Virus record (IMG/VR): IMGVR_UViG_2799112432_000001
Coordinates: 1 to 35,813 of that record
Length of the DNA: 35,813 nucleotides
From: a virus
Direction: 5' to 3' (one strand)
The position numbers were made by a program, and so were the translations under genes. Below are positions 5,219 through 31,195 of this stretch, in pieces. Within the stretch, counting starts at the first letter, position 1; each line of letters begins with the position of its first letter. The notes below the pieces were generated by a model. The model ran no database searches. It had not been told where the DNA came from and worked only from the letters and a program-made list of their open reading frames with translations.

Positions 5219-6406
5219 ATGGATAATGAGCTAAAGATTGAATATTTGCCTGTTGGCAGTTTGAAGCCGTATGAAAAGAACGCTCGTAAGCATCAAGATG
5301 CAGATGTGCAGACGATTGTGGCGAGTATAAAGGAATTTGGATTCGATGACCCCATTGGCGTTTGGGGCGAGGACAATCTCATTGTTGAGGGTCACGGGCG
5401 TTTGATGGCGGCGAAAAAACTCGGGATGGAGACTGTGCCTGTTATCCACCTTGACCATCTGACGGATGAACAGCGGAGAGCGTATGCATTGGCGCATAAT
5501 AAGACCGCCGAGATGAGCGAGTGGGACTTTGACCTTCTTAGCGGCGAACTTGACGGCATATTTGATATTGATATGTCAGAGCTTGGATTTGACCTTGATT
5601 TTGACGGGTATGAAGAACCTGCTGAAATTATAGAAGATGAAGTCCCCGAAGAAGTAGAAACACGGTGCAAGCTTGGAGATATATGGCAACTCGGAGACCA
5701 CAAATTGATTTGTGGAGATTCTACGGATGTTGCGGTTATTGATAGGCTTATGGATGGGGTAAAGGCTGATATGGTGTTTACTGACCCTCCATATGGAATG
5801 AATCTTGATACAGACTATTCAAAAATGGATAATGAAAGTAGCAACGCAGAGTTTCGCAAACGAAAAAATATAGTCGGCGGAAAAAAATATGAGCAAGGCA
5901 AGGTTGACGAATTTCACCCCGAAATGATAGATGCGGTATTTGCAATAGATACAGACGAAATGTTTTTATGGGGTGCTGACTATTTTTCAGAATTATTACC
6001 AAACAAAAATGATGGGGCTTGGATTGTATGGGATAAAAGGGATGACAATGAGCAATTTGATAAAATGTACGGAAGTCAATTTGAATTATGTTGGAGCAAA
6101 AAGAAACACAAAAGAGAAATCGCAAGAGTAAGGTGGTGTGGAGTATTTGGAACGGAAACAGAATTTGACCACAAGAGGCATCATCCCACACAGAAGCCAA
6201 TCAAACTTGCATCATGGTTTTTAGAAAGATATAGCAAGGAAAATGATATTGTTGTTGATATATTCGGCGGTAGTGGTAGCACACTAATAGCCTGTGAACA
6301 GTTAAACAGAAAATGCTATATGGCTGAACTCGACCCACACTATTGTGATGTGATTATTTCAAGATATGAAAACTTTACAGGGAAAGCGGCAGTAAAAGTA
6401 AGCTGA
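5219..6406 (+). CDS. ParB-like N-terminal domain fused to a DNA methyltransferase (N6A/N4C, beta class)
   Basis: The N-terminus (LKPYEKNARKH...IVEGHGRLMAAKKLG) is ParB/Srx-like. The DPPY motif IV (MVFTDPPYG) comes before the SAM motif I (DIFGGSGSTLIACEQLNRK), the order seen in PF01555-type beta-class enzymes. Confidence 0.85.
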   Translation: MDNELKIEYLPVGSLKPYEKNARKHQDADVQTIVASIKEFGFDDPIGVWGEDNLIVEGHGRLMAAKKLGMETVPVIHLDHLTDEQRRAYALAHNKTAEMSEWDFDLLSGELDGIFDIDMSELGFDLDFDGYEEPAEIIEDEVPEEVETRCKLGDIWQLGDHKLICGDSTDVAVIDRLMDGVKADMVFTDPPYGMNLDTDYSKMDNESSNAEFRKRKNIVGGKKYEQGKVDEFHPEMIDAVFAIDTDEMFLWGADYFSELLPNKNDGAWIVWDKRDDNEQFDKMYGSQFELCWSKKKHKREIARVRWCGVFGTETEFDHKRHHPTQKPIKLASWFLERYSKENDIVVDIFGGSGSTLIACEQLNRKCYMAELDPHYCDVIISRYENFTGKAAVKVS

Positions 6407-18128: not shown

Positions 18129-19324
18129 CACCAAAACTATATGATGAAGATTATGCTACCGGAGGAGTGTATGGAGATTCAAGCCGTAACGGTTATGGCT
18201 TTTTAAACACGTGCCAAAAATGTCTTGTTGAAGAAAAAACATCGGGCGTATACACGCTTGAAATGGAATTGTTAACAACTGACCGATACGCAGAGCATGT
18301 ATTGCCGAACAAGTTTGTTAAAATCATACCAAACAAAATGCACAACCCTCAATTATTCCAGATTTACCGCGTTAAGGAGGAAGGAAAAAAGCTGAGTGTA
18401 TCGGGGTGCCACATAAAATATCTTGCGGAAAATAACATGATATCCCGATATAATGCTTATGTAAGTATAACTCCGCCTGATGGGAGATATCTTACAGTGC
18501 CAAAAACGCAACGAGACACAGCACATGACTTTCTTAAATCTCTTAAAGAAGACAGATTATTTTTAATTGAAGATTACTCAAATTCAACAATACCCATCGC
18601 ATTCCAACGGCAATTCAATATCACCGCTGATACTAATATCGAAGCGAAAACAATTCACTTGCGTAAATTTACGGGCAAAAAGCTCGGAGACCTCTTGACG
18701 GATAAAGAGTATGGAATGGGGCAGTACGACGGTGAATGGCTGTATGATAACTATAAGTTGACTTTAACAAAGCGCGGTAAAGGCGAAGCAGTAAAGCTTA
18801 GATATGGGTACGACTTAAAAAACGTAACAATTGAATATTCAAGCGATAATAATTATAACGTTGTTGTCCCGTATGGAAGAGTTAGAACGTCCGGCGAAGC
18901 TGAATTCTATCTCGGAGGGACACCGGTTTTTTTGAACACGGTTGAAGCTCACAAATACCCACGCTTAAGGGCTGTTGACGTGTCAGAACATTTGCCTGAA
19001 TTAAGTGTTGATACTAATACAGGCAGCGGGATGAAGGACGCGTTTGATCAAATCAACACAGTGTTCTCAGGTGTATACTACCGCGGAAAATACCACGCAA
19101 GAGGTTATGAAATTGCAGTAACAGCCGAGTTAAATTATGAGTCAAAAACAGTGCAGGGGCTTGGTCTATACGACCCTGTTGTTCTTGTGACTGAAAGCGG
19201 TAGGGAAATTTTATCAAAAGTCAACGGGGTAACGTTCGACGCGCTGAACGAAAAGATCGTAAAAATCGAGCTTGATAACAAGCCGCTAACTTTGCAAGAT
19301 ATGATTTCAAAGAAAAGGAGGTAA
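18113..19324 (+). CDS. tail-associated / baseplate hub protein (Tal-like)
   Basis: 403 aa, second gene after the TMP. The start is GTG 18113 or in-frame GTG 18125. Confidence 0.55.
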   Translation: MAYAVTPKLYDEDYATGGVYGDSSRNGYGFLNTCQKCLVEEKTSGVYTLEMELLTTDRYAEHVLPNKFVKIIPNKMHNPQLFQIYRVKEEGKKLSVSGCHIKYLAENNMISRYNAYVSITPPDGRYLTVPKTQRDTAHDFLKSLKEDRLFLIEDYSNSTIPIAFQRQFNITADTNIEAKTIHLRKFTGKKLGDLLTDKEYGMGQYDGEWLYDNYKLTLTKRGKGEAVKLRYGYDLKNVTIEYSSDNNYNVVVPYGRVRTSGEAEFYLGGTPVFLNTVEAHKYPRLRAVDVSEHLPELSVDTNTGSGMKDAFDQINTVFSGVYYRGKYHARGYEIAVTAELNYESKTVQGLGLYDPVVLVTESGREILSKVNGVTFDALNEKIVKIELDNKPLTLQDMISKKRR

Positions 19325-19328
19325 AGCT

Positions 19329-21950
19329 ATGAATAATATAACATATGCCGTAAGTGTTGACGTGAACAATCCAATTATACCGTATAACGTGTATGTGGCA
19401 AGCGTTTTGGATTCAAACGTGAGATACCTTGAAATAACGTTGTATCAAAACGGCAATGTTATTGCACTTAGTAATACTGCAACCGCAACGGCATCGCTTG
19501 TGACAGATAACGTGCTTGTAAATGATAGTGTTAACTGTACTATTTCAGGCAGTATCATAACCGTGCCGTTGGAGGACTTACAGCGGCACGGTAATCTTGA
19601 TGTACAGGTAACTGTCACTGAGGGTACAAAGGTTTTAGCAATTCCGTTTCCAATACAAGTAAGGGTGACTCCGAATATTGCGGAGGAAGCGCAAATTGAC
19701 AATGACTCGCTCGGATCATACGCCGAGGTGGTCAGAGAGATCGCCGCCGCCCGGGGTGATTATCCCGACCTTAAAGACAGGCTCGATGGTGAGATTGACA
19801 GAATTGATGATGATATTTCAGACATCAACACGGCACTGCTGGGTAAGGCAAACAAGGCTGCCGCAGGCTCCGCCGGAGAGCTGGCGGCGCTGGACGGTAA
19901 CGGGTCGCCGATACGGTCTGGCGTTTCGGTTATACAAAGCATCGGCGAGGGCAGCAACAGCAGGGTGCCGACGACGGCGGCGGTGAAAAATGCGCTGGAC
20001 GGAAAGGCGGACAAGGCTGCGGCAGGAACCGACGGCGAGCTGGCTGCGCTGGACGATAACGGGGCGCTGAAACGGTCGGGGGTCACGGTTGCGCAGAGCG
20101 TCGGCGAGGGCAGCACTGACAAGGTGCCGACGACTGAGGCTGTGCGTAACGCGCTGAACGACGCGGAAGATACAACCGCTGAAAACATAGATTGGATTTT
20201 TCAGGGTAACAGCGCCTTTTTTCCGCAACTGTATTTTGAGCAGTATTTCACAGCAAACGGCAGCAATTACAGGCTGATCTATGATGATAGAGACGGCGAA
20301 AGACATGTGCTGTTTGACTTTGCGCAGCTGCCTGCCGCTACGGGTGAGAAGGGAGAGAAGGGCGACCCCGGCAACGATTATGTTTTGACCGAGCAGGACA
20401 AGGCAGACATTGCGGGAATGGTGGACATAAGCGGAAAAGCCGACAAGGCGACAACGCTTGCAGGGTACGGCATCACAGACGCGTACACCAAAACGCAGAC
20501 AGACACTTTTTTCTCGGACACAAACGCCGACATCGCCGACCTCAAAGCTTATATCGGCTACACCGACGGCGATATCCTCGGCTTGCATGCCGATTTTGAG
20601 AACAAGGTATTTACAAGGCTCGGCGCGGCAGTCGGACTGACGGCAGGTCAGGATTTCAATGCTTTCACGATGTACGGTGGCAGACGCAGGTGCTGTGTTT
20701 CTAATGATGGAACGATTAATGCCTACTACGGAGAACAGGATTATGTCGAAGATGGCTCCAATGGTCAGGTCATGGTGTATCAGCCGAAATTCTACTACTG
20801 CATGGTGCCGCTCAAGCTCGAAAAACAGGCTTCCGGAATAGGCTATCATATCCGCAAGGCGAATTACTACGTTACCGCGAATCCGCATCCCGGCTTCAAG
20901 CTCCATCCGCTCTTTTACGACGCGAACGGCAATGAGGTCGACTATGTGCTCCTCTCGGCGTATGAGGGCAGCATGTACGATGTATCTGAATCGGCTTACG
21001 TCAACGACGGCGTTGACAGCATCAGCTACGCGAGCGGCGACCTGCTCTGCTCGGTATCGGGCAAAAAGCCGATCAGCGGCAAGCTTGGCGGTGTTGGAAG
21101 CAAAACACAGTTTGAAACAATGGCAAACAATATTGGTTCCGGCTGGCATCTGAACACCATCAAGGCTGAAAGTGCAAACCGACTTCTGATGATTATTGAA
21201 CTGGGAAGGTTCAACACACAGGCGGCTATTGGTCAGGGTGTTGTTAGACAGTCAGGTGCATCAGGTGCAGACAATGCTTCATCTTTAACTGGTTCAACAG
21301 CAAACCTTGGCAATGGAACAGGACAAGCAACAGAAACCATTGCTGAATCAGCTGGAACGGAAACTGTCAACACAACAAGCAGCAAACTGTCTATCAGTTA
21401 CAGAGGTGTTGAAAATCCTTGGGGCAACATCTGGAAGCATACCAACGGCATCAACCTTTGGGGTGATGGTCACATGGGCGGTGGTCAGGTGTTCATTTGT
21501 GATGATTTCAGCTTCAGTGAAAGCAAGCACGATGGAAATTATCAGTCAGCAGGATTCACCATTTCCAATGGTAACGGTTATGTTTCCGCATTTGGTTATG
21601 GTGATGAAGAATTTGACTGGTTGTTCATGCCCTCAGAAACAACCGGAAACAGTTCACTTCCTGTTGGTGATAACTATTGGTGTACACCCAACCTGAATGG
21701 TTACCGTATTGCTCTATTGGGCGGTAAGTGGAATGACTTTGCTGATGCGGGCGGTTTCTGTTGGCGTTGTGCCGATCCGCCCGGCACTCGGCATTTCGTT
21801 ATCGGCGGTCGCTTGCTGTATGTACCGACCGCAACGGGTTTCGGACCGCAGGGACCGGCAGGCAGTAACTACGCCCTCACTGCCGCCGACAGGCAGGCGA
21901 TCGCGCAGATCGCGATGGACGGCTTGAACGGAAACGGGGTGGCGTACTGA
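19329..21950 (+). CDS. receptor-binding / tail fibre protein (BppU-like N-terminal anchor, fibre repeats, collagen-like triplets, globular C-terminal domain)
   Basis: The N-terminal ~115 aa (ITYAVSVDVNN...LDSNVRYLEITLYQNG...ITVPL...VQVTV...PFPIQVRVTPNI) resemble the BppU_N Ig-like domain. Next come 2x53-aa repeats, GEKGEKGDPG, LAGYGITDAYTKTQTD, and a C-terminal GGKWND...GGFCWRC...IGGRLLYVP segment. Confidence 0.7.
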   Translation: MNNITYAVSVDVNNPIIPYNVYVASVLDSNVRYLEITLYQNGNVIALSNTATATASLVTDNVLVNDSVNCTISGSIITVPLEDLQRHGNLDVQVTVTEGTKVLAIPFPIQVRVTPNIAEEAQIDNDSLGSYAEVVREIAAARGDYPDLKDRLDGEIDRIDDDISDINTALLGKANKAAAGSAGELAALDGNGSPIRSGVSVIQSIGEGSNSRVPTTAAVKNALDGKADKAAAGTDGELAALDDNGALKRSGVTVAQSVGEGSTDKVPTTEAVRNALNDAEDTTAENIDWIFQGNSAFFPQLYFEQYFTANGSNYRLIYDDRDGERHVLFDFAQLPAATGEKGEKGDPGNDYVLTEQDKADIAGMVDISGKADKATTLAGYGITDAYTKTQTDTFFSDTNADIADLKAYIGYTDGDILGLHADFENKVFTRLGAAVGLTAGQDFNAFTMYGGRRRCCVSNDGTINAYYGEQDYVEDGSNGQVMVYQPKFYYCMVPLKLEKQASGIGYHIRKANYYVTANPHPGFKLHPLFYDANGNEVDYVLLSAYEGSMYDVSESAYVNDGVDSISYASGDLLCSVSGKKPISGKLGGVGSKTQFETMANNIGSGWHLNTIKAESANRLLMIIELGRFNTQAAIGQGVVRQSGASGADNASSLTGSTANLGNGTGQATETIAESAGTETVNTTSSKLSISYRGVENPWGNIWKHTNGINLWGDGHMGGGQVFICDDFSFSESKHDGNYQSAGFTISNGNGYVSAFGYGDEEFDWLFMPSETTGNSSLPVGDNYWCTPNLNGYRIALLGGKWNDFADAGGFCWRCADPPGTRHFVIGGRLLYVPTATGFGPQGPAGSNYALTAADRQAIAQIAMDGLNGNGVAY
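19842..20159 (+). repeat. 2 x 159-nt in-frame tandem duplication inside the fibre gene
   Basis: GKANKAAAGSAGELAALDGNGSPIRSGVSVIQSIGEGSNSRVPTTAAVKNALD is followed by GKADKAAAGTDGELAALDDNGALKRSGVTVAQSVGEGSTDKVPTTEAVRNALN. The unit boundaries are 19842/20001/20159. Confidence 0.85.
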
Positions 21951-23791
21951 TGGGACAGAAGTTCTATAATGAAGCGGATGTGCAGGCGATAGCCGCCGCG
22001 ATCCGCGCCAAAAACGGCACGCAGAACACCTACACCGTCAGTCAGATGCCGGCGGCGATAGCGGCGATCACAACGGGCGTGCCGGCTGAAACGCTTGTTT
22101 ATGCGCAGCGCAACGCCGCCGCAGGCGCGTTTGTGGACGAGGTGACCTACGACCCTGCCGATTATACCGTGAGCCGTATCGCGGCATATGTTGGCGCAAG
22201 CGGCAACGACAAGCCCCTCGGCGGCACGTTTTCAGCCCCCGAAAACGGCAGGGTGGTCCTGCTCGACAGCGGCAGATGTGCCGTGCTGACGGTCAGCGCA
22301 GGAAACAATACGCTCTACAATATCACGCCGAACACCACGGGCGCGTTCGTCTTTTTGACCCAAGACGACCGCATCGGCGCGGTCGGCACGCTCCGACCGG
22401 GCGGCGCCCTGCGCATGCTCAAACTGAATGACGCGTCGAACGTCCGCGACCTCGGCGGCTGGGCTTGCGACGGTGGCACGGTGCGCTACGGCAAGCTCTT
22501 CCGCGGCAGCCGGCTGTTTATCAGCGGCAGTGTCAACGCCTACGACAAGACGGTGCTGCACGACCTGCTCGGCATACAGCACGAGCTCGACCTGCGCTAC
22601 GCAAACGAGCTGGAACGCGACTTTTCGCTGATCGGCAGCGACGTGGACTGGACGCACATCGACGGCGCATGGTACGCGATAAGAGACAGCGCAAAATGCC
22701 GTGCGATCCTTGAATGCGTGTTTGACTGCGTTCTGAACGGAATCCCTCTGTATTTTCACTGCGCAGGCGGCGCCGACAGGACCGGCACACTATCTATGTG
22801 GCTCGAAGCCCTGCTCGGCGTTTCGCAGAGCGACATCGACAAGGACTATGAGCTGACAAGTTTTTTTTCGGGCGTTGCCACCGACGCGCAGGCGCGCCGC
22901 AGAAACGAAAGCGAATGGCAGGGCTTGATAACGGCGTTTCGGGATTATCCGGGCGACACTATCCGCGACAGGGTCTTTGCATGGACAGTCACGTTGGGAA
23001 TACCGGTCGCAACAATCAACGCTTTTCGTGCCGCCATGATAAACGGCACGCCGCAAGCGCTGGTGAATCCCTACGGCACGGTCGCGGTCGGTCAGGCGCT
23101 CACGCGCATAACCATTGACAATGCGGCGCAGTCAACCGAGATGTATCAGCCTTACACGGCGACCCTCAGCGCCGACAGCGGTTATTCCCTCGCCGGCGCG
23201 AGCGTTGCGGTCACGATGGGCGGCGTTGACGTGACGGCGGACTGCTATCAGAACGGCGTTATTCACATTGAGCAGGTGACCGGTGCGCTGACCATCACTG
23301 CGACTGCCGCGGCGCAGTACACTAACCAAATTCTATTTGCAACCGACGCCATCGGCGGCACGGCGCTCTACAACGGCACCGGCTACAAGCAGGGCTACCG
23401 CTGGACTACGAGCAACACCGAGGACAACGGCGAAATTTCGGGCATCCCGAACAAGTTCGCGGTCGGCTACATCAAGGTAGAGCCGGGCGATGTGGTGCAC
23501 CTCTACGGCGACATCTGGAAGGGCACCTCCGGCGGTATCTCGATGCACGTCCAAAACGCGACGGACACAAGATTGGTGCGCGCAACATTGGCAAACTGGT
23601 CGGACGGCTATACGGCGCGGTCAGACATCATGGCATATATGTCCGACATCGACTACGACGACACCACCAAGACGCTGCGCTCCTTTAGGTGGACAGGCGG
23701 CACAAGCGCCGTCACGGGCTACATGCACTGGACGTTTGTCGGCGTTTTTGACGCGTACCAAACTGTATTGACGATTAATGAGGAGATGTAA
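21950..23791 (+). CDS. tail fibre-module protein with an internal tyrosine-phosphatase-fold (Y_phosphatase3-like) domain
   Basis: It contains NVRDLGGW...VRYGKLFRGSRL...LGIQHELDLRYANE...YFHCAGGADRTGTLSMWLEALLGVSQSDIDKDYELT, with a CX5R P-loop at 22757-22786. The N-terminus is fibre-style (YTVSQMPAAIAAI) and the C-terminus is beta-rich. ATGA-type overlap with the upstream stop. Confidence 0.75.
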   Translation: MGQKFYNEADVQAIAAAIRAKNGTQNTYTVSQMPAAIAAITTGVPAETLVYAQRNAAAGAFVDEVTYDPADYTVSRIAAYVGASGNDKPLGGTFSAPENGRVVLLDSGRCAVLTVSAGNNTLYNITPNTTGAFVFLTQDDRIGAVGTLRPGGALRMLKLNDASNVRDLGGWACDGGTVRYGKLFRGSRLFISGSVNAYDKTVLHDLLGIQHELDLRYANELERDFSLIGSDVDWTHIDGAWYAIRDSAKCRAILECVFDCVLNGIPLYFHCAGGADRTGTLSMWLEALLGVSQSDIDKDYELTSFFSGVATDAQARRRNESEWQGLITAFRDYPGDTIRDRVFAWTVTLGIPVATINAFRAAMINGTPQALVNPYGTVAVGQALTRITIDNAAQSTEMYQPYTATLSADSGYSLAGASVAVTMGGVDVTADCYQNGVIHIEQVTGALTITATAAAQYTNQILFATDAIGGTALYNGTGYKQGYRWTTSNTEDNGEISGIPNKFAVGYIKVEPGDVVHLYGDIWKGTSGGISMHVQNATDTRLVRATLANWSDGYTARSDIMAYMSDIDYDDTTKTLRSFRWTGGTSAVTGYMHWTFVGVFDAYQTVLTINEEM

Positions 23792-23798
23792 ATAAAGC

Positions 23799-24263
23799 AT
23801 GAAAGATTTGATTCACATTCTTTTCGCCGGAGCCGTCGGTGCTCTGGCGGCATATTTTAACGTTTTAGCCGTGCCGCTGGTCGTGCTGGTCGCGGCCATG
23901 CTGATTGATTATGTCACCGGCATGACGGCGGCAAGCTACACAAAGCAGCTCAACAGCCGCGTCGGCGTGATCGGTATTGTCAAAAAGGTCTGCTATTTGG
24001 CGCTGGTCGCGGTCGGTATGGTGGTTGATTACCTGATAAGCTCGGCGCTGGTTTCCATCGGCATCAGCTTGCAGATCAATTATTGTTTCGGTATGATTAT
24101 AACCGTCTGGCTGATTATCAATGAATTGATTTCAATTTTGGAGAACCTCGGCGAGATGGGCGTGCCGCTGCCGTCGTTTTTGACAAGCATGATCAAGACG
24201 TTAAAGAGTAAGGTTGAGGAACAGGGCAAGCATTATCAAAAAGACAAGGATTCGGAGGAATGA
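23799..24263 (+). CDS. holin (Phage_holin_4_1 / toxin-secretion-holin type)
   Basis: Multiple TM helices. LIDYVTGMTAASYTKQLNSRVGVIGIVKKV matches the D-x-x-TG...S-x-x-G-x-x-G-x-x-KK motif of that holin family. It lies upstream of the endolysin. Confidence 0.7.
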   Translation: MKDLIHILFAGAVGALAAYFNVLAVPLVVLVAAMLIDYVTGMTAASYTKQLNSRVGVIGIVKKVCYLALVAVGMVVDYLISSALVSIGISLQINYCFGMIITVWLIINELISILENLGEMGVPLPSFLTSMIKTLKSKVEEQGKHYQKDKDSEE

Positions 24264-24532
24264 ACATGTTAGGAAACAAAGAATTTATTGAACAGAGTAA
24301 GCAGATCGTGCATGATTACGCGGTCGAGCATATGGACAAGACCGACACGGTACCTCCGTTTGATGTGTTTGTTGTGTGGAGTTGTAAAATTCTTCAGAAC
24401 CACAAGGCGCTGCTGAGCACGACGCTAACGGACGGCATGTACTATGAGATCACCTATAACGGCGACAAAAAAGAGGCATACCTCGACGCGTACAAGAAAT
24501 TCGAAACCCGCGTCGTGATGAAGGAGGATTGA
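24260..24532 (+). CDS. hypothetical protein between holin and endolysin
   Basis: 90 aa, overlapping both neighbours. VFVVWSCKILQNHKALLST...YYEITYNGDKKEAYLDAYKK looks like a small conserved phage family seen near lysis genes (from memory, unverified). Confidence 0.5.
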   Translation: MNMLGNKEFIEQSKQIVHDYAVEHMDKTDTVPPFDVFVVWSCKILQNHKALLSTTLTDGMYYEITYNGDKKEAYLDAYKKFETRVVMKED

Positions 24533-24534
24533 CC

Positions 24535-26166
24535 ATGAACATCATCAACAAAAAAGGCGTCGATATTTCATCCAACAACGGCAAGGTCGATTTCGGGAAA
24601 ATCAAGGCGGCGGGTTATGATTTCGTCATGATCCGCTGCGGCTTCGGTGAGAACATTCCTGAGCAGGACGACACCTTCTGGGAGGAAAACGTCCGCAAAG
24701 CCGAGGCGGCAAACATGCCGTGGGGTGCGTACTTCTATTCCTACGCCTGTTCCGAGGCAAGCGCTAAAAGCGAGCTGGAGCACGTCCTCCGCTTGCTCAA
24801 GGGCAAGAAGCCGACGCTCCCTGTTGCGTTCGACATGGAGGATGCAGACGGATACAAAGCGCGTCACGGCGGCTGGAACCGTACCAACGTGACGAGAGCC
24901 TGCAAGATTTTCCTCGAAGGAATTGCGAAAGCGGGATATTATCCGATGATTTATGCCGGTTTTGAGGAAAAGGACAACCTCATTTCTTCTGCGGTGTGGA
25001 ACAGCCATGATATCTGGTTCCCACATTGGGCGAGAGAATGCGGCTACAAGGGTGACAATCTCAGCATGTGGCAGTACGGCGGCGAGACCAACCTGATTGA
25101 TGGAAACAGTATCCCCGGCGTCGGAGTGATCGACAAAAATCTGTGCTATAAAGACTATCCGACGATTATCAAGGATAGTGGCAAGAATGGCTGGAGCGGC
25201 TCCGGCAAGACTCCTGACAAGCCGAAAGTCAGCGGCATAACGGCAGAGCAGGCAATGAGTGCAGCGCGAGGTCTTGTCGGTAAAGACGAAGATCCCGACG
25301 AATGCGACATCATGAAATGGTACGGCGGCTTTGATACGGACATCAATGAAATCGCCTGCTGTTGCGCCGGTATAATGTATTTGTTTTTCAAGATACTCAA
25401 CGCAGGAAGCCTCATCCCCGGGGGCAAGGTCGCGGATTGCGGCTCAATCGCGCTGAATTTTTACAAAGCAGGACAGCTCCACAAGCCGTCCGAGGTAAAG
25501 CCCGGCGACATTGTCGTATTTTCATGGAGCCACAGCAAAACGTCGGTTTCACCGCTTAACAATCTCGGATATATGTGCTTTGAGCACGTAGAGCTCTGCC
25601 TCAAGGTTTTTGATGATACCATTTTGAGCATTGGCGCGAATAACGGCGGTATTGAGTGCGACGATTTTCAGATCAAGACGCGCAGCCGCTCGGATATTTC
25701 CGCCTGCTGCCGTCCGAACTACGCCGACGGCGGGGAAGAGGACACCGCGGCGACTGTCACCGAGGCGGTCTACGGCGATAAAAACGTCTATGAAATCCAG
25801 CAGTGGCTCAACAGTCATTTCGGCTTTGATATTTACATCGACGGCGTGTACGGTCCTCAGACGCGCGCGGCTCTTGTCATGGCGCTGCAGACCGTTCTCA
25901 ACCGCGATTACGGCGCTGATCTGGAGGTCGACGGCATCTACGGAAGATTGACGAGAAAAGCAGTGGTCAACCTCGAGCGCGGAGCCTACGGCGATTACGT
26001 CAAGGTGCTGCAGGGCTTTCTGATCTGCATGGGCTACGACACGGGCGGCTTCGACGGCGATTTCGGCGGTAGAACCGAGGAATCGGTCAAAACCTTCCAG
26101 ACGGTGAGAGACTTATATGTCGACGGCATAGCCGGTAAAGCAACTTTTGAAGAACTCACGGGGTAA
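24535..26166 (+). CDS. endolysin: GH25 muramidase + CHAP/NlpC-P60-like domain + 2 x PG_binding_1
   Basis: The N-terminus KGVDISSNNGKVDFGKIKAAGYDFVMIRCGFG is GH25-like. The middle (IACCCAGIMYLFF...KPGDIVVFSW...FEHVELCL...SIGANNG) follows a CHAP-like Cys/His pattern. The C-terminus has two DG-x-YG/FG-x-x-T repeats, as in PG_binding_1. ATG 24535 has a GGAGGA RBS; TTG 24529 is the alternative start. Confidence 0.8.
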   Translation: MNIINKKGVDISSNNGKVDFGKIKAAGYDFVMIRCGFGENIPEQDDTFWEENVRKAEAANMPWGAYFYSYACSEASAKSELEHVLRLLKGKKPTLPVAFDMEDADGYKARHGGWNRTNVTRACKIFLEGIAKAGYYPMIYAGFEEKDNLISSAVWNSHDIWFPHWARECGYKGDNLSMWQYGGETNLIDGNSIPGVGVIDKNLCYKDYPTIIKDSGKNGWSGSGKTPDKPKVSGITAEQAMSAARGLVGKDEDPDECDIMKWYGGFDTDINEIACCCAGIMYLFFKILNAGSLIPGGKVADCGSIALNFYKAGQLHKPSEVKPGDIVVFSWSHSKTSVSPLNNLGYMCFEHVELCLKVFDDTILSIGANNGGIECDDFQIKTRSRSDISACCRPNYADGGEEDTAATVTEAVYGDKNVYEIQQWLNSHFGFDIYIDGVYGPQTRAALVMALQTVLNRDYGADLEVDGIYGRLTRKAVVNLERGAYGDYVKVLQGFLICMGYDTGGFDGDFGGRTEESVKTFQTVRDLYVDGIAGKATFEELTG

Positions 26167-26206
26167 AATGTAAAGTATATTTATACTTTAAGAGAATACA
26201 AATAAG

Positions 26207-26584
26207 ATGTTTATTAAATGTAACCCGAATCCGTACCACCTGAGAACCGACGATTGTGTAATAAGGGCTATCGCTATAGCTGAAAATGCAAGCTGGGATA
26301 AGATCTATCTTGACTTATCTATATATGGTTTAATTTATGCTGATTTGCCAATACGGAATAATGTATGGGGCAGATTTCTGAATGATAGAAATTATGAGTA
26401 CATTTCTATACCAAATACTTGCCCCTTTTGCTACAGAATCAAGGATTTCTGCAAAGATAACCCAAACGGTACATTTGTACTTGGTACAGAACGTCATGCA
26501 GTTTGCGTTATTAACGGCGACTACTACGACACGTGGGACTCAGGCAGTGAAGTCCCGATTTACGGATTCAAGAAAGGTGACTAA
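26207..26584 (+). CDS. hypothetical protein with a possible papain-like Cys...His...Asp arrangement
   Basis: 125 aa. It has an N-terminal TDDCVIRAIAIA and a C-terminal ERHAVCVINGDYYDTWDSG, the spacing expected of a small cysteine-peptidase-fold protein. This is pattern only. Confidence 0.35.
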   Translation: MFIKCNPNPYHLRTDDCVIRAIAIAENASWDKIYLDLSIYGLIYADLPIRNNVWGRFLNDRNYEYISIPNTCPFCYRIKDFCKDNPNGTFVLGTERHAVCVINGDYYDTWDSGSEVPIYGFKKGD

Positions 26585-26586
26585 AA

Positions 26587-27012
26587 ATGGCATATAATAA
26601 TTACATGTTTCCGCAAGGTTATTATCCTGCGATTATTCCACAGTATCAGCAGACAGTTCCGCAGATACAGCAGAATGTTCCGCAACAGCAGGCTCAACCT
26701 CAAAATAATGGCATAATCTGGGTGCAGGGCGAACAGGCGGCGAAGGGGTATCCCGTAGCACCGAATCAGTCAGTGCTTTTGATGGACAGCGAGCAGAGCG
26801 CATTTTATATCAAATCAGCGGACAACGCAGGAATGCCGCAACCGCTGAGGATTTTCGATTATTCGGAACGCAACACAAATCCAGTGCCGGCGCAACATCC
26901 TGAGCAGAGTTTTGTTACGCATTTGGAATTTGACGAAAGGCTCGAAGAATTAAAATCAATGATTAAGACTACCACAAAGGAGAAGAAGTCAAATGGCAAA
27001 TCCACTGTTTAA
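26587..27012 (+). CDS. hypothetical protein with a Q/P/Y-rich N-terminus and a conserved-looking beta domain
   Basis: MAYNNYMFPQGYYPAIIPQYQQTVPQIQQNVPQQQAQPQNNG is followed by IWVQGEQAAKGYPVAPNQSVLLMDSEQSAFYIKSADNAGMPQPLRIFDY. Confidence 0.6.
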   Translation: MAYNNYMFPQGYYPAIIPQYQQTVPQIQQNVPQQQAQPQNNGIIWVQGEQAAKGYPVAPNQSVLLMDSEQSAFYIKSADNAGMPQPLRIFDYSERNTNPVPAQHPEQSFVTHLEFDERLEELKSMIKTTTKEKKSNGKSTV

Positions 27013-27220
27013 CCTTCTTAACAATTCAGCGCAAATTCCAGTTAACACGCCGATGGGAAATGCCATGGCGATGTTAAAACAGTTCCAGCAATTCAAAAAT
27101 AGTTTCCACGGCGACCCGAAAGCTGAGGTAATGAAAATGTTGAACAACGGACAAATGACACAAGCTCAGTTTAACCAGTATCAGCAAATGGCTCAACAGT
27201 TCCAGAGCCTTATAAAATAA
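26993..27220 (+). CDS. hypothetical small Q-rich helical protein
   Basis: 75 aa; it overlaps the upstream gene by 20 nt. Confidence 0.55.
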   Translation: MANPLFNLLNNSAQIPVNTPMGNAMAMLKQFQQFKNSFHGDPKAEVMKMLNNGQMTQAQFNQYQQMAQQFQSLIK

Positions 27221-27270
27221 GTCAAAACAACTCGCGAGGTTTTGAAAATAAATTTTAAAGGAGAAAACAT

Positions 27271-28083
27271 ATGTCAATCACAAGTGAAGGCATGACACCT
27301 GCGGACATCGCCGCAGTGACAGGCAACAACAGAAATGATGGAGGATTTGGCGACGGCGGCGCATTTTGGCTGCTCGTGCTGTTCCTCTTTGGAGCCAACA
27401 ACGGCTGGAATTACGGCGGCTGGGGCGGCAACGGTGGCGGCAACAACGGCGCTATCCCCTATATTGGTACAAATGCCGACATTCAGAGAGGCTTTGACCA
27501 GTCAGCTATTATGTCGGGAATCAACAACCTGACAACAGGTCAGTGTAACCAGACTGCGACATTGCAGAATGCAATCACTCAGTCACAGATAGGCGCAATG
27601 CAGGGCTTTAACGGCGTAACAGGCACTATTAACAGTGGTGTAAATCTCTTACAGTCTACACTTATGCAGAACGAAATGAACCGTCAGAAGTGTTGTTGCG
27701 ACACTAAACAGGCAATCGGAGACCTCAAATACACCGTAGCAACTGAAAACTGCGCAGACCGTCAGGCTCTTTCCGATGGCGTTCGTGACATCATTGCAAG
27801 CAATACAGCTCAGACGCAGGCTATTCTTGATAAGCTTTGTCAGCAGGAACTTGACGCTAAAAACGAGACGATCGCAAATCTCAGAACTCAGCTCAACATG
27901 CAGAATCTTGCGGCTTCTCAGACCGCGCAGACTGCTCAGATTCTTGCCAACAATGCGGCGCAAACTCAGGCGCTTGAGCAGTATCTGAACCCTGCACCGA
28001 TTCCTGCGTATGTAGTTCAGAATCCTAACTGTTGCCCTACGCAGAACAATTGCGGTTGTAATTGCGGCTGTGGTGTAGGTTAA
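27271..28083 (+). CDS. Gly/Asn-rich membrane-anchored coiled-coil protein with a Cys-rich tail
   Basis: GGFGDGGAFWLLVLFLFGANNGWNYGGWGGNGGGNNG is a YjcZ-like Gly-flanked TM segment. A Q/N/A/T-rich heptad-like region and a KCCCD motif follow, and the C-terminus is NPNCCPTQNNCGCNCGCGVG. AAGGAGAA RBS. Confidence 0.6.
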   Translation: MSITSEGMTPADIAAVTGNNRNDGGFGDGGAFWLLVLFLFGANNGWNYGGWGGNGGGNNGAIPYIGTNADIQRGFDQSAIMSGINNLTTGQCNQTATLQNAITQSQIGAMQGFNGVTGTINSGVNLLQSTLMQNEMNRQKCCCDTKQAIGDLKYTVATENCADRQALSDGVRDIIASNTAQTQAILDKLCQQELDAKNETIANLRTQLNMQNLAASQTAQTAQILANNAAQTQALEQYLNPAPIPAYVVQNPNCCPTQNNCGCNCGCGVG

Positions 28084-28095
28084 GGAGGTAACAGA

Positions 28096-28575
28096 ATGGC
28101 TGAATATGCCTATAACCCTGCACAGAGCGTGAATGCGGGCGCTCCCATCATTTTAAACACTGTAATTCCGTGCAACAAAGGGTTTGTATACCACAGAGAA
28201 CAAAGTGGTATTCTGGTATTGAGAGGTAAGGTCTGCGGCAACAACTGCTTTGCGCGCTATCAGGTCACATTTAACGGCAACATCGCCCTTCCCGACGGCG
28301 GTACAGTTGGTTCGCCTTTGTCTGTTGCAATAGCTCTTGACGGTGAACCGATTTTGACAAGTAAAGCAATCTATCAGCCCACAGTTACAGCGGAAGACCC
28401 CGCAACAAGTGTAGGTTTCGGGAATGTTACATCAACTGCGATTATAACCGTTCCCAAAGGATGCTGCTTTAACATCTCGGTAGAAAATACATCCGAGAGC
28501 GCAACGCCTGATACAACGCCAGCCCCGACTATTCTGGTTCAAAATGCCAACTTAACAGTAACGAGAATTGCATAA
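28096..28575 (+). CDS. putative TNF/C1q-like jelly-roll protein (BclA C-terminal-domain-like)
   Basis: 159 aa. The alternating beta pattern (APIILNTVIP...GILVLRGK...YQVTFNGNIALPDGG...LSVAIALDGEPILTS...TSTAIITVPKGCCFNISVENTS...ILVQNANLTVTRIA) resembles small BclA_C-type domains. Confidence 0.45.
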   Translation: MAEYAYNPAQSVNAGAPIILNTVIPCNKGFVYHREQSGILVLRGKVCGNNCFARYQVTFNGNIALPDGGTVGSPLSVAIALDGEPILTSKAIYQPTVTAEDPATSVGFGNVTSTAIITVPKGCCFNISVENTSESATPDTTPAPTILVQNANLTVTRIA

Positions 28576-28590
28576 AGCGAGGTGAAGAAA

Positions 28591-29013
28591 ATGAGCTACA
28601 GATTGTATGAAGAAGCTAAAGAAAAGTTCTGCGAAGCTCTCGCGGAGATTGTGGAGGGTAAGCAGAGATTTAACGCCGATGACCTCAGACTTGCAAAAGA
28701 AGCAATTAGCGGTGTTTATAAAGCAACTATCCTTATGGAGATGGAGAACGGCGACTATTCATACGCCGACGGTATGAGTAACGCAAAGAGAGATAGCCGC
28801 GGCAGATACAGCCGTGACAGCGGCAATAGTTACGGTCGTCACATGGGTAACCGTGGCGGCGGTTATGACTATTCCTACCGTTATTCACGTGATGAAGCTA
28901 AAAAGGATATGGCGGCAGAAATCAAAGAGTTAATGCAGTACGCCGAGAACGAAACCGAAAGGTCAGTGCTCAGGCAGGCGGCAGAGATGTTGAAAAACAA
29001 CGCCGAGAAATAA
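28591..29013 (+). CDS. hypothetical protein with a central R/S/G/Y low-complexity segment
   Basis: Helical ends flank KRDSRGRYSRDSGNSYGRHMGNRGGGYDYSYRYSRDE. ATG 28591 is 7 nt from GAGGTG; GTG 28582 is the alternative start. Confidence 0.55.
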   Translation: MSYRLYEEAKEKFCEALAEIVEGKQRFNADDLRLAKEAISGVYKATILMEMENGDYSYADGMSNAKRDSRGRYSRDSGNSYGRHMGNRGGGYDYSYRYSRDEAKKDMAAEIKELMQYAENETERSVLRQAAEMLKNNAEK

Positions 29014-29321
29014 TGCCGACTAAAGAAGAATTACTCAAGGCTATTGATGATGTGTCAAGACTTCCAGACACTTATTCAAAATGTCAGAAGCTTGCAACCT
29101 TTTACATTTTGCTTAATTCTCTTTACCCGGAAGAAGATTTTAAAAACGAATTTAGCACACAATTTCAAAGTACAAATATTGATGTTGGGGAAAGCGAATT
29201 TTTGCAGAAAATCAAAGGGCACGATATAAGCAAAGTAATCAGCGTTTTAGATGAATTGATGGAAGCATTAAAAGCCTTGAACCCGAGGCTATACGCCAAC
29301 ACATTACGGCGGTTTGAATGA
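29013..29321 (+). CDS. hypothetical protein
   Basis: 102 aa, TAATG overlap with the upstream gene, last gene before a strong terminator. Confidence 0.55.
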   Translation: MPTKEELLKAIDDVSRLPDTYSKCQKLATFYILLNSLYPEEDFKNEFSTQFQSTNIDVGESEFLQKIKGHDISKVISVLDELMEALKALNPRLYANTLRRFE

Positions 29322-29325
29322 ACGA

Positions 29326-29354
29326 AAAGGCAGGTCAAGCACCTGCCTTTTTTC
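29326..29354 (+). terminator. rho-independent terminator (end of late operon)
   Basis: aaaggcaggt-caagc-acctgccttt is a perfect 10-bp stem with a 5-nt loop, followed by a T-run. Confidence 0.85.
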
Positions 29355-29386: not shown

Positions 29387-29415
29387 TTGACGAATGTGTC
29401 ACATAGTGTTATATT
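29387..29415 (+). promoter_or_regulatory. sigma-A-type promoter with extended -10 (early operon 1)
   Basis: TTGACG (29387-29392), a 17-nt spacer, TGT-TATATT (29410-29415). A TGTGTCACA palindrome sits in the spacer and a TTCAAAA-AA-TTTTGAA inverted repeat sits upstream (29364-29379). Confidence 0.7.
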
Positions 29416-30274: not shown

Positions 30275-31195
30275 ATGAAAGGTTTTAAGGCATTTGGTAA
30301 AGGATTAGTTTGCAAGGGCAAACAGTACGCGGAAAATACAGTGTTTGAGGAAAGTAATGCGGTTATATGCTGGAGGGGAATGCATTTTTGCAAAAACCCG
30401 TTTGACGTGTTAGACTATTACCCACTCATTGATAGCAATGGAAATGTAGTGGAAGTCGCGCAAGTCGAAGCGTTGGACGAATGCCACACAGACGACAGCA
30501 AAAAGTATTGCACTAAAAAATTAAAAATAGGCTTTAAATTGTCGTTAAAGGAATTTGTAAAAGCGGCTATAGATTTTGCGCTTGAAAAGAACGACGGCAA
30601 AGTGTCAACAGGCGATGGCGCACAGCTTGCGAGCTCAGGCTATGGCGCACAGCTTGCAAGTTCAGGCAATGGCGCACAGCTTGCGAGTTCAGGCGATTAC
30701 GCAAAGCTTGCGAGTTCAGGCGGTCACGCACAGCTTGCGAGTTCAGGCGATTACGCAAAGCATGCAAGTTCAGGCGATTACGCACAGCTTGCGAGTTCAG
30801 GCGATTACGCAAAGCTTGCGAGTTCAGGCGGTTACGCACAGCTTGCGAGTTCAGGCGATTACGCAAAGCTTGCAAGTTCAGGCGATTACGCACAGCTTGC
30901 GAGTTCAGGCAATGGCGCAAAGCTTGCGAGTTCAGGCGATTACGCAAAGCTTGCGAGTTCAGGCAATGGCGCAAAGCTTGCGAGTTCAGGCTATGGCGCA
31001 GTTATTGCCGGAATTGGAAGATGTAATACAGCAAAGGGGAAGAAAGGTAGTTGGTTAGTTCTTACCGAATGGGGGTATAACGATATAGAAAGAAAATATA
31101 TCCCAATCTGTGTTAAGGCGGCACAGATAGACGGAGTGGTAATTAAAGAAAACACATTTTATAAACTTGAAAACGGAGAATTCAAGGAGGCGTAA
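30275..31195 (+). CDS. DUF7666-like N-terminal domain protein with 14 tandem 9-aa (xxAxLASSG) repeats
   Basis: The N-terminus MKGFKAFGKGLVCKGKQYAENTVFEE...CWRGMHFCKNPFDVLDYYP resembles phage DUF7666 proteins (from memory). The central repeats are DYAKLASSG / NGAQLASSG and similar. Confidence 0.6.
   Translation: MKGFKAFGKGLVCKGKQYAENTVFEESNAVICWRGMHFCKNPFDVLDYYPLIDSNGNVVEVAQVEALDECHTDDSKKYCTKKLKIGFKLSLKEFVKAAIDFALEKNDGKVSTGDGAQLASSGYGAQLASSGNGAQLASSGDYAKLASSGGHAQLASSGDYAKHASSGDYAQLASSGDYAKLASSGGYAQLASSGDYAKLASSGDYAQLASSGNGAKLASSGDYAKLASSGNGAKLASSGYGAVIAGIGRCNTAKGKKGSWLVLTEWGYNDIERKYIPICVKAAQIDGVVIKENTFYKLENGEFKEA
30614..30991 (+). repeat. 14 x 27-nt perfect-phase tandem repeat (coding)
   Basis: The unit is gattacgcaaagcttgcgagttcaggc and close variants, head to tail with no spacers. 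The repeat generates spurious ORFs in other frames and on the other strand. Confidence 0.95.

Follow-up and report, generated by a model that had tools for sequence, protein, structure and literature searches.

In this study, we analysed a run of seven small genes, g1 to g7, in a viral genome of 35,813 nucleotides (nt) (IMG/VR record IMGVR_UViG_2799112432_000001, positions 1 to 35,813; this whole stretch is referred to as the window). The window is the genome of a tailed phage whose + strand carries every gene, and the seven genes stand one after the other behind the endolysin gene. We rate this set, hereafter the cassette, as a real phage module, widespread and of an undescribed kind, that matches no described system. 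Gene order among phages and the spacing of the genes show it to be a co-inherited and, as read from the DNA, translationally coupled operon of six to seven genes.

Two surveys carried this conclusion, one of 88 loci picked by g4 alone and one of 80 viral contigs picked by g5 alone, 73 of which were free of truncation by a contig end. The order g1 to g6 was kept in 72 of these 73 uncut contigs, and the order g1-g2-g3-g4-g5-g6(-g7) was found in 50 of the 88 g4-selected loci. An optional seventh gene, g7, had homologues behind g6 in roughly one of every two viral contigs picked by g5 and in at least 12 g4-selected loci. The same genes in the same order were observed at well over 100 independent loci, and this recurrence is far beyond chance. 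An apparent "g4-g6-g1" variant actually consisted of g2', g3', g4, a divergent g5' resembling tumour necrosis factor (TNF), g6 and g1, so that all six genes were retained even where g1 had been relocated to the end. The preliminary description of this DNA, made from the letters alone, had treated the genes as one cluster that might co-occur in other phages and prophages, and they do recur together, as a real functional unit. Among 117 non-identical cassettes, g5 was the most conserved gene of the set (mean pairwise identity of 58%), followed by g1 (48%), g4 (47%), g6 (34%), g3 (32%) and g2 (31%). At least 8,000 clusters at 90% identity were found for g4, and likewise at least 8,000 for g5.

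The operon is laid out in the window as follows (lengths in amino acids, aa).

26207-26584, + strand: g1, 125 aa, starting 41 nt past the endolysin gene
26587-27012, + strand: g2, 141 aa
26993-27220, + strand: g3, 75 aa, overlapping g2 by 20 nt
27271-28083, + strand: g4, 270 aa
28096-28575, + strand: g5, 159 aa
28582-29013, + strand: g6, 143 aa, with a GTG start
29013-29321, + strand: g7, 102 aa, its start overlapping the g6 stop by 1 nt
29326-29354, + strand: strong intrinsic terminator closing the operon, hairpin AAAGGCAGGT-caagc-ACCTGCCTTTTTTT

From g1 to g7 the intergenic gaps measured 2, -20, 50, 12, 6 and -1 nt. The terminator, whose 3' arm after AAAGGCAGGT-caagc- is also given as ACCTGCCTTT followed by a T run, was detected by our own scan for a hairpin plus T run and missed by a consensus scanner. 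The cluster had been described as six packed same-strand genes running up to a terminator; the packing, the strand and the terminator stand, whereas the number does not, as there are seven open reading frames (ORFs), the six and what had been called a final hypothetical. Rfam, tRNA and repeat scans of the region found no RNA genes and no notable repeats.

Searches of g1 to g7 against Pfam, NCBIfam and PADLOC returned no match of named function; the best PADLOC hits for the seven proteins (E 0.016-0.078, 11-12 bits) were not meaningful. PHROGs placed g1 to g5 in five families of unknown function, namely phrog_3754 (g1, E 4e-23), phrog_21718 (g2, E 8.5e-28), phrog_22984 (g3, E 1e-19), phrog_16490 (g4, E 7.5e-41) and phrog_20016 (g5, E 3e-29). 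PDB sequence and profile searches with g1, g2, g4, g5 and two neighbours from the Bacteroides phage gave nothing significant, and the cassette DNA had two short matches only among GenBank phages. Nothing relevant was retrieved from the full-text literature on the PHROG identifiers, on TNF-like or exosporium proteins in phages or on the crAss "spike protein", and the source names of six checked clusters of g1, g4 and g5 were "hypothetical protein" only. It had been stated at the outset that none of the genes has a standard phage function, and these results agree with it.

The cassette was found 3' of the endolysin gene, in the same gene order, in Butyrivibrio virus Ceridwen and in Dulem virus 33. 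Cultured carriers, in which it resides in prophages, were Butyrivibrio sp. INlla21 (two), Eubacterium ruminantium ATCC 17233, Selenomonas sp. AE3005 and Anaerovibrio lipolyticus DSM 3074. Ceridwen has been observed only as a lytic phage, with B. fibrisolvens DSM 3071 as its host (PMC7372960). In Dulem virus 33 a free-standing endonuclease gene stands between g3 and g4.

Insulation from neighbouring genes is a further property of the family. Of 116 distinct cassettes, 66 had an intrinsic terminator in the 200 nt 5' of g1; of 111, 66 had one in the 150 nt 3' of the last gene, and terminators inside the operon were found in 3 of 124. Directly 3' of the upstream terminator, many loci carried an extended -10-like box of sigma-A type, TGn-(C/G/T)A(A/T)AAT, situated 10-25 nt 5' of the ribosome-binding site; among the 66 loci that a terminator precedes, a crude pattern recovered it in 24. 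These flanking signals show an operon that is predicted to be usually autonomous in transcription. At loci L104, L111, L133, L144, L169 and others, the promoter-like box and g1 are separated by a short additional ORF, about 50 aa long (MNRLIARLIDCGMTRDVAL...ERYVESVE), and a second type of small ORF (M.DIS..L...M..K.CSS) occurred 5' of g1 in other cassettes.

The phage backbones that carry the cassette are unrelated, at 36 kb, 80 kb and 124 kb. In the 80-kb phage it stands between an amidase and an integrase gene, and in a 124-kb contig with YonJ- and YonG-like genes (SPbeta names) between an HU-like gene and ClpP. The named 5' neighbours were mainly lysins and holins, together with connector, sigma-like and AgrB genes; the 147 scanned upstream genes included 6 GH25, 4 CHAP and 3 Amidase_2 genes and about 6 holins, and a few lysis genes were also seen downstream. 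The named 3' neighbours were mainly integrases, helix-turn-helix repressors and metallopeptidases. These gene types place the cassette at a junction between late genes and lysogeny or early genes, as is the case for morons. The preliminary description had assigned the cluster to the core genome of the phage because its G+C content was back at the backbone level. The cluster (43-48%) is indeed below the GC-rich block upstream (50-61%, 19.3-26.2 kb), but it is slightly above the backbone (37-45%), and since the cassette is mobile and usually flanked by terminators, a mobile insulated module in the unrelated 36-, 80- and 124-kb backbones, the core-genome reading is not supported.

In the window itself, the genes run in the order tape measure, distal tail, two large GC-rich fibre genes and three lysis-region genes, after which the cassette begins. 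The features next to it are listed here.

23799-24263, + strand: holin gene (PF05105)
between holin and endolysin, + strand: DUF6275 gene (Pfam)
24529-26166, + strand: endolysin gene, GH25/PG_binding, 545 aa
26165-26206, + strand: endolysin-g1 junction, with a TAAAAT -10-like hexamer across the endolysin stop codon, read from the sequence
29387-29415, + strand: promoter-like site after the terminator, TTGACG-17-TATATT preceded by TG

The scan for hairpins and T runs found no terminator in the 200 nt 5' of g1 here, so read-through from the lysis genes is possible in this phage. An AT-only perfect palindrome, AAAGTATA-tt-TATACTTT (26172-26189), lies between the endolysin stop and g1 and could be an operator or a weak hairpin. 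The genes 3' of the promoter-like site encode a primase, Gam, an Erf-like protein, SSB and a replication initiator.

For g4, an exhaustive HMMER search yielded 2,657, 1,302 and 402 clusters at 50% identity for E thresholds of 1e-3, 1e-10 and 1e-30, respectively, all of 180-360 aa and of a single architecture. As seen in the alignment, the protein runs from a conserved N-terminal peptide MTPADIAAVTGN through a Gly/Trp-flanked hydrophobic core AFWLLVLFLFGA, QRGFDQSA and a Q/N-rich region to CCC at 141-143, C161, C190 and a Pro/Cys-rich tail NPAPIPAYVVQNPNCC..CGCNCGCG; in the family the invariant CCC is followed by DLKYTVATENCADR, ILDKLCQQE and then the tail. The Q/N-rich region, the length of which varies by about 100 residues, reads as helical. 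Two types of N-terminal peptide, ..SLSDIAAATGN.. and ..MVMPVAP.., were equally common, and the tail also comes in two types; conserved Pro-rich peptides occur in the tail and, in one subtype, at the N-terminus as well. Both tail types were found with and without a detectable g5, and the "g5-less" variant carries a divergent TNF-like gene. PHROGs searches on the structural-module variant loci L012 and L083 were uninformative.

By residue counts g4 contains 10% Gln, 12% Asn, 12% Gly and 4.4% Cys (the mean Cys content of the other window proteins is 1.8%), and its last 17 residues, CCPTQNNCGCNCGCGVG, include 6 Cys. Across the family, a mean of 10.4 Cys was counted in the 221 residues after the hydrophobic core, and Lys plus Arg averaged 0.27 before the core and 1.09 after it. 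With 11-15 residues between flanking Gly, Trp and Asn, the core probably serves as a membrane anchor; its maximum over 19 residues on the Kyte-Doolittle scale was 1.44, as against 2.43 for the holin. The Gly-flanked transmembrane segment initially proposed for g4 therefore stands as a hydrophobic segment and probable anchor, but it is too short to be a certain transmembrane helix. Its comparison with the YjcZ sporulation peptides failed, as there was no NCBIfam match and the segment is part of a 270-aa protein conserved along its whole length. The N-terminal D-I-A-A-V-T-G-N resembles the ELxxIxGG of double-glycine leaders, but the position of the GG varies (GN, GG, RG, NG), unlike a leader of that kind.

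Crass-like phages and a phage of Bacteroides uniformis also carry full-length g4 homologues. These are accompanied by a beta-rich protein, one that reads as a beta segment and a coiled coil, an R/D/Y-rich protein and DUF7841. Comparison of these neighbours with g5 and g2 by hhalign found no homology; they are analogous to g5, g2 and g6, and what these loci share with the cassette is g4 and, in composition, g6. DUF7841 adjoins the g4 homologue in L008 (phage cr125_1; 3897-4502, E 3e-43) and in L007 (6853-7254, E 5e-16), in cr125_1 with an R/Y/D/H-rich tail fused on, similar to the low-complexity centre of g6, and it was found 3' of two Firmicutes cassettes as well. At L008 4533-5432 the g4 homologue and its neighbours have in-frame stops under table 11, consistent with stop-codon recoding. 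In a contig of a Selenomonadaceae metagenome-assembled genome (L047 4197-6403), the g4 homologue is split just before the CCC by about 1.3 kb with a 331-aa endonuclease of GIY-YIG type, probably a group I intron or homing element.

For g1, the preliminary description had pointed to a Cys...His...Asp pattern, which proved to be conserved and in a papain-like arrangement. Cys17, His97 and Asp108 were invariant in an alignment of 40 sequences, which also showed an invariant CPxC at 72-75. In the AlphaFold2 model (predicted local distance difference test, pLDDT, 94.8), Cys17 is at the N-terminus of helix 17-25, His97 stands just before strand 98-102 and Asp108 ends strand 105-108; this is the order that defines clan CA, with a conserved Cys at a helix start and His plus Asp/Asn on later strands. 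g1 is thus predicted from the model to be a small papain-like fold with Cys, His and Asp. Foldseek against the PDB gave weak matches to Tae4, Josephin-2 and the C39 domain of PCAT1 (E 0.5-0.9, probability 0.2-0.28, template modelling (TM) score 0.34-0.47), and against BFVD it gave strong matches to uncharacterised proteins of many phages and one weak "Josephin domain" match; Pfam, NCBIfam and PDB sequences had no match. Two candidate activities were rejected. A glutaredoxin match (E 0.06) concerned the CPxC motif only, and cleavage by g1 of a double-glycine-like g4 leader was dropped as g1 is present or absent irrespective of the g4 N-terminal type. Homologues of g1 outside the cassette occur in the early region of Tsamsa-like Bacillus phages (e.g., Izhevsk, L170 4965-5360), beside a Ser/Thr kinase gene and an Ocr-like anti-restriction gene and in some cases annotated as "putative peptidase", and also in Geobacillus GBK2 and in Lak megaphages.

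These features of g4 and g1 raise the question of a lysis accessory, in which g4 would be spanin-like or a holin regulator, g1 an amidase of NlpC/P60 or CHAP kind and the rest regulators of release. Lysins and holins are the commonest named neighbours just 5' of the cassette, the g4 homologue of cr125_1 follows genes annotated as holin and LysB-like, and Tae4 is among the weak fold matches of g1. Like the two-component spanins (lambda Rz/Rz1), g4 has an N-terminal anchor, coiled-coil segments, conserved Cys and a Pro-rich end, the architecture of an i-spanin, and its gene often adjoins those of a holin and an endolysin. It differs from them in that the set contains no protein with a lipobox and no family match; Pfam returned no spanin, holin or amidase. 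The hosts include monoderm Lachnospiraceae, which need no spanin, and a terminator usually divides g1 from the lysis genes, which makes a spanin or lysis role less likely. Moreover, the cassette of the 124-kb phage is far from the lysis genes, and the Tsamsa-like homologues of g1 belong to early, host-takeover genes. We therefore consider a function in lysis unlikely.

The AlphaFold2 model of g5, built with 36 homologues, was all-beta (pLDDT 87.4, predicted TM score (pTM) 0.81), and Foldseek against the PDB ranked first the C-terminal domain of F-BclA (9h38, E 4e-7, TM score 0.65-0.79), followed by ExsF (9h3d), BxpB (8d02), ExsFA (7r5i), EDA-A1 and 4-1BBL; lower-ranked matches included knobs of phage spikes and fibres such as the phi812 spike knob and a cyanophage fibre domain. 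Altogether 57 structures matched at E <=1e-3, with best TM scores of 0.6-0.79. As modelled, g5 is a stand-alone jelly roll of TNF/C1q type, like ExsF/BxpB. The TNF- or BclA-C-like pattern noticed at first sight was thus right at the level of the fold, with exosporium proteins as the best matches of solved structure. In sequence, Pfam (BclA_C, C1q) had no match to g5 at E <=0.1, and the profile of the 36 homologues found nothing among PDB sequences at E <=10. The invariant residues include Cys26, Cys51 and Cys123-Cys124, and the loops are conserved too, which argues against a fast-evolving receptor-binding head, whose loops would be expected to vary.

The knobs among the g5 matches bear on the possibility that the cassette is an accessory set of the virion, with g4 as a coiled-coil protein of fibre or ejection type, g5 as its TNF-like knob and the other products as assembly factors, all serving to decorate or arm the particle. 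In the window the genes close the late transcription unit, others have annotated the g4 homologues of Bacteroides and crAss-like phages as "viral fiber" or "spike protein", and an insert with a homing endonuclease, as in the g4 of L047, is typical of conserved, important phage genes. A further hint came from g3, for which Pfam TMP_2 scored 14-17 bits in 8 of 44 members, always at profile positions 116-166. The cut-off is 30.2, however, and g3 has no similarity to the tape measure of the window phage, so this motif was rejected as an identification. The cassette travels with unrelated morphogenesis modules, and the g4 core reaches into crAss-like phages; the usual terminator, often followed by a box of sigma-A type, the highly conserved loops of g5 and the hydrophobic anchor of g4 likewise make a particle component less likely, and no profile matched a solved protein of phage particles. 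Decoration of the virion, one of the functions suggested initially, is accordingly disfavoured, and we would call it rather improbable.

The remaining products are of low complexity or short. g2 (13.5% Gln) has a Y/Q/P-rich low-complexity N-terminus and then a conserved segment of about 55 aa (GIIWVQGE..AKGYPV..LLMDSE..FYIKS..LRIFDY), which reads as beta-strands, and after this segment a short amphipathic helix (YVTxxEF); it has no relative in the PDB or Pfam. g3 (17.3% Gln) conserves the motif GDP..V..LLNSG.MSQ.Q.NQ and reads as a helical hairpin. The mean Gln content of the other window proteins is 3.3%, and all compositional remarks of the preliminary description, such as the Q-rich g2 and g3 and the Cys-rich tail of g4, were correct by residue counts. 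In most loci g6, which contains RGRYSRDSGNSYGRH...GGGYDYSYRYSRD, comes straight after g5 and is orthologous by position; a G/Y/S/R low-complexity centre (RDSxGRYSRD ... YSRD) separates its two end regions, both of which read as helical, and its Pfam result was DUF5320 at E 0.02 only, under the cut-off. g7, which reads as helical, had no match in Pfam, PHROGs or NCBIfam.

If the R/G/Y/S-rich g6 bound DNA or RNA while g4 anchored it, the operon would be a membrane tether for phage nucleic acid, comparable to p16.7 of phi29. RG/RGG- and Arg-rich low-complexity segments are shared by g6 and its counterparts in Bacteroides phages, and boxes of sigma-A type would permit early expression. Replication genes are close by in the window (primase, Gam, Erf, SSB) and in the B. 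uniformis phage (RecT, YqaJ, resolvase), and a cassette-like block precedes Gam and Erf in the Clostridium perfringens phage XP41-N3, but this adjacency is inconsistent across loci. In addition, no DNA-binding domain was detected in the products, and a tether would leave the TNF-like protein and the Cys-rich features without a role. We regard this function as very unlikely.

The reading first proposed, in which the phage carries a module for remodelling the spore coat or exosporium, has in its favour that g5 is most similar in structure to proteins of the exosporium. The mixture of Cys-, Q- and R/S/Y-rich proteins resembles that of coat proteins, and like these the products have no signal peptides and would be released by lysis (no N-terminal signal peptide was found in any of the seven). 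To our knowledge, however, the hosts Butyrivibrio, E. ruminantium, Selenomonas and Anaerovibrio are non-spore-formers, and two of the cultured hosts are diderm Negativicutes. Relatives of g4 occur in Bacteroides and crAss-like phages. Models of YjcZ, the exosporium leader, GerQ and BclA_C in Pfam and NCBIfam found no match (leader and YjcZ at E <=1), the seven proteins contain no collagen-like GXY repeats, and the boxes 5' of the cassettes showed no promoter pattern of sporulation type but that of sigma-A. As a general function, spore remodelling is largely refuted, and we give it hardly any weight; the operon is probably not about spores. Because these tests were negative, the likeness to coat and exosporium proteins is one of design rather than of spore function, and the shared design consists of a TNF fold, Cys-, Q- and R/S/Y-rich proteins, synthesis in the cytoplasm and exposure by lysis.

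With a role in the particle and a role in lysis both less likely, an envelope function is favoured, at low confidence, and we rank it above the virion, lysis and spore roles. Our tentative proposal, which we hold as the leading candidate at less than even chances, is that this accessory operon, moving as a block among otherwise unrelated tailed phages of gut and rumen anaerobes, builds a Cys-rich complex inside the cell, tethered to the cytoplasmic membrane of the host, with exclusion or protection at the envelope as its role. First, the products would form one assembly organised by g4, with its short Gly/Trp-flanked anchor, a variable Q/N-rich helical stalk, the Cys cluster and the Pro/Cys-rich tail. 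The absence of signal peptides together with three Cys-rich products (4.7% Cys in the g4 stalk, 3.7% in g1 and 3.1% in g5) leads us to expect assembly inside the cell, and exposure to the outside would come only at lysis. The large Cys-rich part of g4 would lie inside as well, in view of its signal-less partners, a weak positive-inside bias and the depletion of Cys in exported Firmicutes proteins; Daniels et al. are said to have reported this depletion in 2010. Second, g5, presumably a trimer, would serve as a docking or capping knob and may grip a Pro-rich peptide of g4. This step was suggested by the conserved Pro-rich peptides of g4 and by ExsF, which grips a Pro-rich leader peptide in a cleft between its subunits (PMC12357932). 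Third, g2, g3, g6 and g7 may act as low-complexity or helical adaptor and matrix proteins, and g1 may process or cross-link a component or a host target. Of all these steps the role itself is the least certain; it would serve the phage that infects the cell or resides in it, by excluding other phages or by protecting the membrane of the infected cell.

Several observations weigh against this proposal. With only 11-15 aa, the hydrophobic core of g4 would make a short transmembrane helix. Which N-terminal type a g4 carries bears no relation to the presence of g1, nor does its tail type to a detectable g5, although the "g5-less" variant has a divergent TNF-like gene. In the window there is no terminator between the endolysin gene and g1, and the operon may be read from the late genes. 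Known exclusion systems use far fewer than six or seven genes, the PADLOC search of the seven proteins found nothing, and the cassette is also present in phages observed only as lytic.

The same parts could be put together in another way, as a portable, coat-like and cross-linkable assembly kit that tailed phages would bring into gut anaerobes. Such a kit would be the viral equivalent of exosporium or spore-coat assembly, and we consider it an outside chance. The kit would comprise a TNF-fold docking trimer, a Cys-stapled stalk tethered to the membrane, a Q-rich and R/Y/S-rich matrix and a papain- or transglutaminase-like enzyme; hosts that do not sporulate would make it in their cytoplasm, and lysis would expose it. 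If true, it would coat or cross-link membrane remnants or progeny, for instance to shield virions, to cluster them or to blind the receptors of debris.

Besides the spanins, the known systems closest to the cassette resemble it in fold and design (ExsF/BxpB), in design (TNF ligands) or in genomic behaviour (morons). The ExsF(A)/BxpB proteins of the exosporium of the Bacillus cereus group, with the BclA/F-Anchor leader, resemble the cassette in a stand-alone TNF fold of about 160 aa (g5), a filamentous partner with a Pro-rich peptide (g4), Cys-rich partners and products that are signal-less, made in the cytoplasm and exposed by lysis. The cassette differs from them in that no sequence membership was detected (BclA_C, exosporium leader and PDB profile were negative), the stalk is a Q/N-rich helix and not collagen, the anchor is hydrophobic, the hosts do not sporulate and phages carry the genes. 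Ligands of the TNF superfamily, for example EDA-A1 and 4-1BBL, are type II membrane proteins with the same design of anchor, stalk and TNF-fold head, but the cassette divides this design between two polypeptides, g4 for anchor and stalk and g5 for the head, and the head has no export signal; the similarity to g5 is one of fold only, at 9-17% identity. In the manner of phage morons and exclusion genes (lambda bor and lom, HK97 gp15, lactococcal Sie2009), the cassette is a discrete predicted unit with terminators at its ends and a promoter-like box of its own; it is set between lysis genes and the lysogeny module or genome junction and would code for a membrane-anchored product. The family shows this build as read from the DNA, and the window holds the downstream terminator only. 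Morons differ in usually being one gene, whereas the cassette is a conserved operon of 6-7 genes that also occurs in phages known only as lytic, and no sequence relation was found between the cassette and known exclusion proteins.

Elsewhere in the window, the block of 50-61% G+C (19300-26200) spans the lysis genes and a pair of large genes for tail fibres or receptor binding, which suggests a recently imported block for host range and lysis. The ORF at 5219-6406 (395 aa), in the region on the packaging side, encodes a homologue of DNA (cytosine-5) methyltransferase with about 40% identity to phage methylases and is not a terminase. The protein at 30275-31195 (306 aa) contains about 13 tandem decapeptide repeats (GDYAKLASSG and variants) and belongs to phrog_4433, of unknown function.

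Strict synteny and insulation across many lineages of gut and rumen phages imply a common and selectable function that phage biology has not named. The g4 family and its partners have no Pfam or NCBIfam family and no solved relative, and the cassette would show a TNF fold at use inside non-sporulating bacteria. A cultured lytic phage and prophages in strains of culture collections carry the cassette, hence its role is testable, and assigning one would annotate thousands of "hypothetical" genes in gut viromes.

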